From Gemmatimonadota bacterium (GTDB lineage Bacteria; Gemmatimonadota; Gemmatimonadetes; Palauibacterales; KS3-K002): 44,745 bases of DNA. The DNA is taken from assembly GCA_016209945.1 (NCBI GenBank), contig JACQVD010000009.1:1-44745 (forward strand). The letters are read 5' to 3'. Position 1 is the first letter of the stretch. Every line of letters starts with the position of its first letter. Below are positions 9,506 to 24,888 of the stretch, piece after piece. The translations under genes were made by a program, and so were the position numbers. The notes under the pieces were generated by a model, which ran no database searches, had not been told where the DNA came from, and saw nothing but the letters and a program-made list of their open reading frames with translations.

Positions 9506-9680
9506 GATCACCCCGATCACGGCATGCGGGAGCCGCAGCCCCCCGGCGCTCCCCGCGGCCCGCGCGCCCGATTATACAGCCGCGCTCGTGGCGCCCAACA
9601 GACTTCGCCTCTCACGCCGGGCTCGGTCCGCGCCGGAACCTCGTGGCCCCGTCGGCCCGGCGCTATCTTTCGGACGCGCC

Positions 9681-22809: not shown

Positions 22810-23907
22810 CTACGCGAGGAACCTCGACCTCCTGGCGCGCGTCCCCCGGAGGGCCGCCTGCACCATCATGAACTCGCCGACGTTCTCCATCGTGAGAAGC
22901 CCGAGGAGCCGGCCGCCGTAGACGACCGGGAGCATCGGGATCCCCGAGGCCTGCATCCTGGCGAGCACGCGATCCAGCATCTCGAAGGGGCCCACGGTCT
23001 CGACATCGGCGCGCATGATCTCGCGAACGAAGGCCTTGGGCCCGCGCTCGGCCAACACACGCAGGAGATCCGAGCGGGTCACGATCCCCACGACCCGGTC
23101 GGCCTCCACCACGGGGAAATCCTGCTGTGACCCGCTGAGAAGCCGCTCCACCGCCACCCCGACGGGATCCGACGGCGAGAGACTGCGGAACTCGGTGACC
23201 ATGGCGCTCTGCACCGGGACGTTCTGGAAGGCGGCCCGCATCTGAGCGAGCGACGCCTCCTGCTCCGCGCCCATGTAGACGAAGAGCGCGATGAAGAGGA
23301 GGAGCGGGTTCCCGAAGAGGCCCCAGAGCCCAAAGAGGAGCGCCATCCCCTGCCCCACGCGCGCGGCGATCTGCGTCGCCCGGAGGAAGCCGATCCGCTG
23401 CGCCAAGAGCGCCCGCAGCACGCGGCCCCCGTCCATGGGGAAGGCCGGGAGGAGGTTGAAGGCCACGAGGAAGACGTTCGTGAGCCAGAGGCGGAGCAGG
23501 AACGGGCCCGTGAGCGCACTCACCCCCTCCAGGCGCCCGAAGTCGCCCTGCGCCCGGATCACCGCATAGAGCGCGCCGGCGATGAGCACGTTGACCAGGG
23601 GGCCCGCGATCGCGACCAGGAACTCCTGCCGCGGCTTCTCCGGCATACGCTCGAGACGCGCGACGCCGCCGATCGGGAGGAGCGTGATGTCCTGCACCCG
23701 AATCCCGAAGCGCTGGGCGACCAGGCTGTGCCCCAACTCGTGCAGCACCACGCAGGCGAAGACCACGCTGATGAAGAGGATGTTCATCGGGATGGACGCG
23801 CCTACGCTCGCGCTCGCGAACCCGATCCAGATAAAGAGGAGAAAGAAAGTCAGGTGAACGCGGATGGGAATTCCGCTCACCTCGAGGATCTTGAGCGACC
23901 ACCTCAT
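22810..23907 (-). CDS. Site-2 protease (M50) with tandem CBS domains
   Basis: HELGH, AGPLVN, NLLPAFPMDGGR; C-terminal CBS pair. Confidence 0.93.
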   Translation of the reverse strand: MRWSLKILEVSGIPIRVHLTFFLLFIWIGFASASVGASIPMNILFISVVFACVVLHELGHSLVAQRFGIRVQDITLLPIGGVARLERMPEKPRQEFLVAIAGPLVNVLIAGALYAVIRAQGDFGRLEGVSALTGPFLLRLWLTNVFLVAFNLLPAFPMDGGRVLRALLAQRIGFLRATQIAARVGQGMALLFGLWGLFGNPLLLFIALFVYMGAEQEASLAQMRAAFQNVPVQSAMVTEFRSLSPSDPVGVAVERLLSGSQQDFPVVEADRVVGIVTRSDLLRVLAERGPKAFVREIMRADVETVGPFEMLDRVLARMQASGIPMLPVVYGGRLLGLLTMENVGEFMMVQAALRGTRARRSRFLA

Positions 23908-24029
23908 CGTCTCGCTCTCGTCCGTGAAGTCGTGCCGCCCGCCGGGGGCGCTTCCTGGGCCATCGTCCGTCACCAGTTTAGGGCGTACCGGGGAGCAGGG
24001 CGAGCCTTCCAGCGAGGGCGGCAAGGGCC

Positions 24030-24228
24030 AAAAAAACGCGCCGGGAGTCACCAGCGTCCGCCTTCGATCTTTTTCCCTAGGGACTTCCTCCCCAGACCCG
24101 AAGGTCCAGGTTTACATCCCTTGGGCTTCCGGTCCCTGTACGCGCCTGCCCGAGAGCAGGCGGACGTCCGAGACCTTCGATCTAGCGCCCCGAAGGACGC
24201 ACGACGGAACTCGTAACTCCCGGCGCGC
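24030..24228 (-). ncRNA. Candidate structured ~200-nt non-coding RNA of unrecognised family
   Basis: Own promoter; 5' and 3' ends form a 15-bp helix extended by further pairs; two UUCG hairpins with G-U pairs; U7 tail; no credible ORF. Confidence 0.7.
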
Positions 24229-24232
24229 TCTC

Positions 24233-24261
24233 ACTATAAGGGCCGGTCCGCGCACGCGCAA
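24233..24261 (-). promoter_or_regulatory. Sigma70-type promoter of the candidate ncRNA
   Basis: TTGCGC-N17-TATAGT; predicted +1 at ~24226-24228 coincides with the first paired base. Confidence 0.7.
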
Positions 24262-24513
24262 GAGTTTCCATCACTTTGTCAAAAACTCGCCGCGATCTTC
24301 TGCACGCATCCTCTGCAAGGTCGCGTGATCGCCGCATCGATCTCAAACGAATTCTCGACGAAGTGTGTAACTCGTGCCGCCACAACGCGGCGGCGGCTTT
24401 TCCCCGCGACCTGCCAGGATGCCAACAGGCAGTCCACACGAACGGCCGGGCATCTGTTGAAGAATTGTTCGAAAAGAAGGCTCCTTCTCCGCGCGGTGAG
24501 ACCCGTGGGGCGC

Positions 24514-24560
24514 AAAAAACAGAAACGCCAGGCGCCCCGATGCCGATGAGACGCCCGACG
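24514..24560 (-). terminator. Terminator downstream of the HU gene
   Basis: 13-bp GC/GU stem cgtcgggcgtctc/ggggcgcctggcg followed by tttctgtttttt. Confidence 0.6.
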
Positions 24561-24600
24561 AAATGAAAGACGACAGCGGTGCGGTGCGAAGCGGACCCGG

Positions 24601-24888
24601 CTAGTGGGCCACGCTATCCTTCAGCGGCCTCCCTGCCCTGAAGACCGGCGCCACCGTGGCTGGGAGGTAGATCGTCTCACCCGTCCGGGGGTTCCGTGCC
24701 GTGCGGGGCCCGCGCTTTCGTGTCTCGAAACTGCCGAAGCCCGTGATCTGAACCTTCTCCCCGCGCTTCAGGGTCGTGGCGACCAGCCCCTTCTCTACGT
24801 TGAAGAGGGCTTCCACCACTCGGGACGCGTGCGCCTTGGAGAGGTTCACGCGCTCGGCGAGCATCTCCACCAGGTCTCCCTTGTTCAT
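24601..24888 (-). CDS. hup: HU-family DNA-binding protein
   Basis: MNKGDLV...GEKVQITGFGSF...ARNPRTGE...PVFRAG; GGAGG RBS. Confidence 0.95.
   Translation of the reverse strand: MNKGDLVEMLAERVNLSKAHASRVVEALFNVEKGLVATTLKRGEKVQITGFGSFETRKRGPRTARNPRTGETIYLPATVAPVFRAGRPLKDSVAH

Follow-up and report, generated by a model that had tools for sequence, protein, structure and literature searches.

Few large, structured RNAs of bacteria fall outside the known families; those that do have repeatedly led to new biology, and many lineage-specific small RNAs exist. 6S RNA (RF00013), which binds the RNA polymerase holoenzyme and serves as template for product RNA, is a rod with a central bubble, a terminal stem-loop and a closing stem, and 6S-type RNAs are normally conserved across families. 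Bacterial Y RNAs of the YrlA type, bound by Ro/Rsr, have a long end-to-end stem that closes a multi-branch, tRNA-like module, and end in a U tract; the gene of the Ro (TROVE) protein usually lies close by. Described here is a candidate RNA element on the minus strand of a stretch of 44,745 nucleotides (nt) from an uncultured groundwater bacterium (Gemmatimonadota; contig JACQVD010000009.1, positions 1–44,745, termed the window), where it sits in the 693-nt gap between hup and the gene of an M50 protease. The reading that we favour, and to which we give about an even chance, is that the element is a self-contained, lineage-restricted gene for a stable, highly structured non-coding RNA (ncRNA) of about 195–200 nt that would act in trans as a protein-binding decoy or scaffold.

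Two further systems are close in one respect or another. Ms1 is described as a long hairpin that opens into a bubble midway and carries a pair of short hairpins close to its ends, and an example of polymerase-binding RNAs that can evade the 6S model (PMC4191392). HU is reported to work with naRNA4 in nucleoid organisation (PMC4550694), and the chromosome-organising role of REP325 has been questioned by a 2026 preprint (10.64898/2026.03.23.713779).

Predicted fold and boundaries

The sequence-only reading of the window had placed a TTGCGC-N17-TATAGT promoter on the minus strand at the base of a long closing helix and a U7 tract immediately after that helix, and all of these were located (Table 1). 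The promoter-like site ends 4–7 nt ahead of the closing helix at one end, and the U7 tract follows at the other, where the 3' arm ends at 24037. This placement has the geometry expected for a discrete RNA of about 195–200 nt, as had been proposed, with the promoter-like site, both ends of the helix and the U tract in line. Transcription would start 4–7 nt past TATAGT as a unit of its own and stop in the U tract. Pairing between the 5' and 3' ends would then seal the RNA against exonucleases. Upstream, the terminator that had been claimed after hup is present as a stem (24538–24522) followed by a T run, separating hup from the element.

Hexamers that match TATAAT at at least 5 of 6 positions were counted on both strands of the 44.7-kb window (89.5 kb). 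Seven were found, TATAGT at 24238–24233 among them, and a TTG stood 16–18 nt upstream in two, one of which is the promoter-like site of the RNA. The other of the two is a perfect TATAAT in the region 9571–9576 on the minus strand, preceded by TTGGGC with its TTG at 16 nt. Such sites are thus rare in this window of 69% G+C. By eye, comparable hexamers (TTGACC-N18-TAGATT and TTGATT...TAGACA) precede the genome's own genes for tmRNA and RNase P RNA.

Positions 24030–24235 were folded as minus-strand RNA and gave a minimum free energy (MFE) of -118.9 kcal/mol, against -84.5 ± 4.5 kcal/mol for dinucleotide shuffles (z = -7.67; the stability of the native fold was matched by 0 of 200 shuffles). The MFE and centroid structures are identical and consist of a multi-branch junction with three hairpin arms and a long closing helix. 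In the latter, a helix of 15 base pairs (bp) with one G-U pair is extended by two more helical segments; the underlying inverted repeat (24210–24227/24037–24054) is 89% complementary as DNA, and its mismatches become G-U pairs in the minus-strand RNA. The multi-branch core of the sequence-only reading was recovered with its three hairpins, capped by UUCG, CUCG and UUCG, but not with all of its pairings: in the MFE and centroid structures GUCCCU pairs with AGGGAU (24120–24115), AGGGAC pairs with GGUCUC to close the middle hairpin arm, and the proposed pairing of GUCCCU with AGGGAC is only a possible alternative. In the predicted fold, both copies of the 10-nt direct repeat AGAUCGAAGG, which is exact, contribute their GAUC to a 4-bp GAUC/GAUC helix.

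The two strands were then compared. The minus strand gave -116.7 kcal/mol (z = -6.8) and the plus strand -83.2 kcal/mol (z = -3.3), a difference of 33 kcal/mol. Ten of the 69 pairs are G-U, and two of the loops are of the very stable cUUCGg type. Because a DNA palindrome would fold alike on both strands, the signal lies at the RNA level and on the minus strand, in agreement with the RNA-level structure that had been proposed.

A related groundwater strain

The locus was found in public groundwater metagenomes of three studies. Runs X5–X12 contain 24–31% of the sampled words. Among them X5, X6 and X12, which come from two studies other than the one whose runs cover the locus best, yield a variant that diverges by about 4% and in which the order hup, element, M50 is kept; in X5 and X6 a single contig covers the full 1201-nt stretch. 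Among the differences listed, substitutions number 3 in the 206 nt of the RNA and 30 in the 490 nt of flanking non-coding sequence, which also holds 3 indels (Fisher p = 0.006; intervals in Table 1). By these listed differences, the substitution rate of the RNA is about a quarter of that of the flanks. The listed changes within the RNA are a U to C in a junction, a C to U at 24082 that turns a G-C pair of arm 3 into G-U, and an A to C at 24078 in a bulge. All three fit the fold, and the predicted fold of the variant is identical (-112.6 kcal/mol). Both promoter hexamers are unchanged, the nearest listed changes (24255 and 24247) lying in the spacer between them. The variant shows purifying selection that is compatible with the fold, short of proving it.

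The strand comparison and the variant both bear on the alternative that the element has no RNA function. It could be a relic or an accidental cluster of GC-rich inverted repeats, such as a decayed mobile or repeat element, or else a cruciform or protein-binding site near hup that works at the DNA level. An orphan status (no homologues past the near-identical lineage) and the exact 10-nt direct repeat inside the element would suit such an origin, as would the dispersed structured repeat of about 130 nt that relatives in the family carry in up to 23 copies. The element itself is single-copy in its own genome (BLAST returned the self-match only), where R2, a model of the dispersed repeat, had no match at E ≤ 0.1; R3, a model of the core of the RNA, does not match the dispersed repeats. 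Promoter-like and terminator-like signals lie exactly at the helix ends, and the G-U pairs and two cUUCGg tetraloops favour one strand, unlike a DNA palindrome. A relic or a DNA-level element is quite unlikely because of the strand asymmetry, the single copy and the low substitution rate.

Comparison with known RNA families

The whole window was searched with Rfam 15 at gathering thresholds and gave no match; at E ≤ 10 over 23900–24650 (751 nt), only three irrelevant matches of 11–17 bits were returned. The RNase P RNA (259.7 bits) and tmRNA (161.2 bits) of the same genome are encoded elsewhere, on contigs outside the window. The statement that the RNA is of an unrecognised family thus stands: by the tests run here the element is outside every described RNA family, and in kind it is a familiar stand-alone structured bacterial small RNA.

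With 6S RNA and Ms1 the candidate shares its size class, ends paired in a long closing helix, a putative transcription unit of its own, a very stable fold and presumed protein binding in place of antisense action. Its three-arm junction differs from the 6S rod, with a closing stem present in both, and from the shape of Ms1; no synteny was seen among relatives, whereas Ms1-type RNAs keep their position and synteny, and the RNA was not found conserved in its family or order. The 6S model had no match in the window at the gathering threshold, nor over 23900–24650 at E ≤ 10. It was also silent in all 41 genomes of the order searched (G000–G040), closed ones included; since it rings in just 5 of 14 control genomes, this silence is weak evidence. 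The 6S RNA of the order is accordingly either divergent or missing.

A functional analogue of 6S or Ms1, binding RNA polymerase and tuning global transcription, would fill a niche that is empty as far as the 6S model sees, and a size of about 200 nt, paired ends, a promoter-like site of its own and extreme stability are 6S-like traits. Ms1 is a precedent for a polymerase-binding RNA missed by the 6S model (PMC4191392). The three-arm junction in place of a rod with a central bubble, the lack of any 6S match to the 751 nt even at the permissive threshold, and empty searches of 30 family and 144 order genomes, made with a single-sequence model of limited reach, render this analogy very unlikely. 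A candidate global-regulator RNA is worth attention here because the order lacks a 6S RNA detectable by the Rfam model.

The likeness to YrlA-type Y RNAs lies in the long stem formed by the ends, the multi-branch module and the U-tract end; the differences are that no Rfam match, no tRNA-like gene by ARAGORN (which listed no tRNA, tmRNA or tRNA-like gene in 23500–24800) and no adjacent rsr gene were found. With CsrB/RsmZ-type RNAs the candidate has in common several exposed purine stretches that contain GGA, among them AAGGGAUGU, which we take to resemble the CsrA binding consensus. The RNA has 10 GGA motifs where 6.8 are expected from dinucleotide shuffles, an excess short of significance (p = 0.064). 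Unlike those RNAs, the candidate has UUCG and CUCG loops rather than GGA loops, and neither a CsrA gene nor an Rfam match was found. A CsrA sponge, a Y RNA and a tRNA-like gene were dropped on these grounds, namely the loops, the partner genes not found in the 83.5%-complete genome and the silence of Rfam and ARAGORN.

Like Escherichia coli naRNA4 (REP325), the candidate is a highly structured, junction-forming ncRNA, and it lies directly downstream of an HU gene. naRNA4 comes from a multi-copy REP cluster, whereas the present element is single-copy, and the adjacency to hup is the sole link. A signal recognition particle (SRP) RNA was also considered and rejected, no SRP-family match to the region being returned at E ≤ 10. 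The best small-SRP score in the genome, 18.5 bits, is elsewhere (C155:5137-5214; L183:1501-1578), lies below the Rfam cut-off and covers a partial string like domain IV. This match may be due to chance, and the true SRP RNA gene may simply be unassembled because the genome is 83.5% complete.

Proposed mode of action

Segments with an unpaired probability above 0.7 are GAA, GGAAG, GUAAA, GAGGAA, AAAAA and GAA, in addition to the tetraloops. They are short and purine-rich, and the exposed segments hold no C/U-rich seed for pairing with ribosome-binding sites. A protein-binding role is favoured over an antisense one because nearly all bases lie in helices with very stable tetraloops and the exposed stretches are short, purine-rich and seedless. 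The RNA would thus act in trans as a decoy or scaffold for protein and not as an antisense regulator. On the favoured reading, the RNA gene is real and lineage-restricted, and its product probably binds protein.

There is a slim chance that the RNA founds a new class of protein-binding RNAs with sealed ends and the shape of a junction. Such an RNA would perhaps titrate or scaffold a global protein that handles DNA or RNA, either RNA polymerase, given an order in which no 6S RNA is detectable, or the HU encoded just upstream, with the twin AGAUCGAAGG and the purine-rich internal loop as its platform.

If real, this is a well-delimited, strongly structured RNA of unrecognised family, in a groundwater lineage that is uncultured and has a small genome, and stable non-coding genes in small genomes are unlikely to be idle. 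The candidate is a credible, well-delimited orphan RNA gene that a specialist would find of interest without being astonished.

Searches for homologues and other opposing evidence

Homologues were sought with BLAST and with single-sequence covariance models built from the whole RNA (R1) or from its core only (R3). Single-sequence models reach only so far, and negatives are for that reason worded as not found in the genomes searched. The genome is the sole representative of its genus among those compared. The element was seen only in its own organism and in the close relative described above, as the sequence-only reading had foreseen in calling it possibly lineage-specific, and the RNA appears from these searches to be restricted to its own groundwater lineage.

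Several results weigh against a functional, trans-acting RNA gene. BLAST against 40 relatives gave matches of 15–41 nt only and no homologue. R1 was run on 30 genomes of the family, 144 more from the order and a sample of 150 from the phylum, and found no credible homologue. R3 found none in the 30 family genomes, with one 61-nt match at E = 0.14. Because no homologue was found in the searched genomes, no compensatory covariation is available. Comparative support is confined to one close lineage with 3 substitutions and no compensatory double change. Of the conservation and covariation looked for in relatives, the lowered substitution rate and one change of G-C to G-U in a near-identical lineage were found; a homologue at genus-to-phylum distance and a compensatory double change were not. 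The counts in that lineage are of listed differences, with 38 beyond those listed. For X12, the listing covers 24 of the 27 differences in 23900–24456, which leaves room for at most 3 more in the RNA; for X5, 11 lie beyond those listed and could in principle fall in the RNA, although most appear past 24772, where X12 has about 10.

On the side of expression and partners, a stricter promoter scan listed nothing at 24261–24233 because the -35 hexamer, which is weak, matches at 3 of 6 positions only. No RNA run is among the listed sequencing runs that contain the locus, which are thus uninformative on expression. Among the usual partners of small RNAs, no gene for Ro/TROVE (PF05731), CsrA (PF02599) or Hfq was found in the genome, which is 83.5% complete, nor was the first of these among the neighbours checked. 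Finally, the stretch from the U tract to the M50 start shows no obvious sigma-70-type promoter by eye and none by scan; M50 may for this reason rely on read-through from the RNA promoter.

This last point leads to the rival reading of the element as a 5' leader that acts in cis on the M50/CBS gene. The promoter at 24261–24233 would then drive M50, and the structured RNA with its U7 would be a riboswitch-like or protein-controlled attenuator of read-through. The element lies on the M50 strand, and the ATG at 23907 is 122 nt past the U tract, close to the 120 nt or so that had been stated; a local 6-bp hairpin (24056–24039) could compete with the long-range closing helix. That helix, of about 30 GC-rich pairs abutting the U7, leaves little room for switching, and no riboswitch family was matched in Rfam. 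Conservation of the locus in the related strain is lowest in the spacer from the U tract to M50, for which 11 substitutions and 2 indels are listed over 125 nt. Four M50 orthologues (53–55% identity) have unrelated upstream regions in which no such element was found (0/4), and R1 found nothing in the whole genomes of those relatives. Across 80 metagenomic M50 loci (47–56% identity), R1 gave two simple hairpins and none of the loci showed the element; with no M50 there above 56% identity, this route did not extend to any close relative. The M50 leader gained no comparative support from these loci, and we regard it as a minor though appreciable possibility, much as the sequence-only reading had ranked it.

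The best non-self R1 matches are plain hairpins. At the hup loci of 29 relatives R1 gave only terminator-like hairpins, and synteny is lost. At all seven inspected BLAST loci that match the middle of the RNA, similarity ends with the short match and nothing resembling the fold is seen; several are on the opposite strand. A 150-nt R1 match in G269 falls within long reading frames and shows no fold signal (z = +0.76). A gapped pattern on the twin 9-nt motif gave 4 matches in genome contigs, all of them unrelated tandem or dispersed repeats, and two exact 27-nt patterns had 0 matches in viral contigs. Two R1 matches of 122–124 nt in genus g4, first taken as shorter homologues, proved to be members of a dispersed repeat family absent from the genome studied here.

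That family is a rod-shaped structured repeat of about 130–136 nt in the same taxonomic family (L039:1495-1630 on the minus strand, L040:1315-1448 on the plus strand, and many loci in G002–G046). R2 matched in 27 of the 30 relatives, where a single genome can carry as many as 23 copies, in varied gene contexts. The core of the repeat is highly conserved; its closing helix is variable yet compensated, with 5 of 35 pairs changed on both sides between two copies. Two loci had no Rfam match at E ≤ 1. The repeat may be REP/MITE-like or a small mobile RNA element.

Neighbouring genes and other features of the locus

The coordinates of the element, of its neighbours and of the intervals compared with the related strain are collected in Table 1. 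The genome is roughly 2 Mb in size, and the window has a G+C content of 69%.

Table 1. Features of the hup–M50 intergenic region and intervals compared with the related strain (window positions; nt, nucleotides; MFE, minimum free energy)
Feature	Position	Strand	Basis and remarks
M50 site-2 protease with CBS domains, downstream neighbour	22810–23907	minus	Pfam Peptidase_M50 E = 5.6e-26, CBS E = 2.8e-18
Predicted RNA, ~195–200 nt	24030–24229	minus	Fold, promoter-like site and U tract; start placed at a purine 4–7 nt past the -10 hexamer, end in the U tract
U7 tract, putative terminator tail, directly 3' of closing helix	24030–24036	minus	By reading; terminator scan lists hairpin 24056–24039 and T run
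Closing helix, 3' arm	24032–24062	minus	MFE and centroid; contains local 6-bp hairpin 24056–24039, a possible alternative terminator stem
Direct repeat AGAUCGAAGG (exact, 10 nt), copy 2	24061–24070	minus	Repeat scan
Hairpin arm 3, UUCG loop	24075–24125	minus	Fold; internal loop asymmetric and rich in purines, GUAAA facing GAGGAA
Hairpin arm 2, about 17 pairs, CUCG loop	24131–24175	minus	Fold; internal loop
Direct repeat AGAUCGAAGG (exact, 10 nt), copy 1	24174–24183	minus	Repeat scan
Hairpin 1, six pairs, UUCG loop	24185–24200	minus	Fold; loop unpaired probability 1.0
Closing helix, 5' arm, about 29–30 pairs in three segments	24203–24232	minus	MFE and centroid
-10-like hexamer TATAGT	24233–24238	minus	By reading; 17-nt spacer after the -35-like hexamer
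-35-like hexamer TTGCGC	24256–24261	minus	By reading; matches TTGACA at 3/6 positions
hup terminator-like hairpin and T run, separating hup from the RNA	24515–24538 (stem 24538–24522)	minus	Terminator scan
hup, HU-type DNA-binding protein, upstream neighbour	24601–24888	minus	Pfam Bac_DNA_binding E = 2.2e-27
Compared interval: downstream spacer	23905–24029		125 nt; 11 substitutions, 2 indels among differences listed; least conserved part of the locus
Compared interval: RNA	24030–24235		206 nt; 3 substitutions, 0 indels among differences listed
Compared interval: upstream spacer	24236–24600		365 nt; 19 substitutions, 1 indel among differences listed

A long plus-strand reading frame (23728–24216) overlaps the element, and in the related strain two indels fall within it (1 nt at 23948, 2 nt at 24019; net +1 nt). 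On account of these indels the frame is unlikely to be coding, and the stretch 23948–24019 is taken as non-coding. A small-protein gene inside the transcript was considered and rejected, the only frames by eye being a 7-codon GUG frame and an AUG-UAA pair.

A stretch of about 260 nt (24262–24520) separates the hup terminator from the promoter-like site of the RNA. In the related strain it has 17 of the listed substitutions and one indel, and it contains a 13-nt imperfect inverted repeat (24313–24325/24405–24417). The stretch looks like unconstrained spacer, which is notable for a genome of this size (roughly 2 Mb). A direct repeat of 13 nt, identical at 12 positions, occurs at 24369–24381, about 110 nt upstream of the promoter-like site, and at 23927–23939 in the M50 5' region; the two copies could be a common protein-binding site, or a chance likeness.

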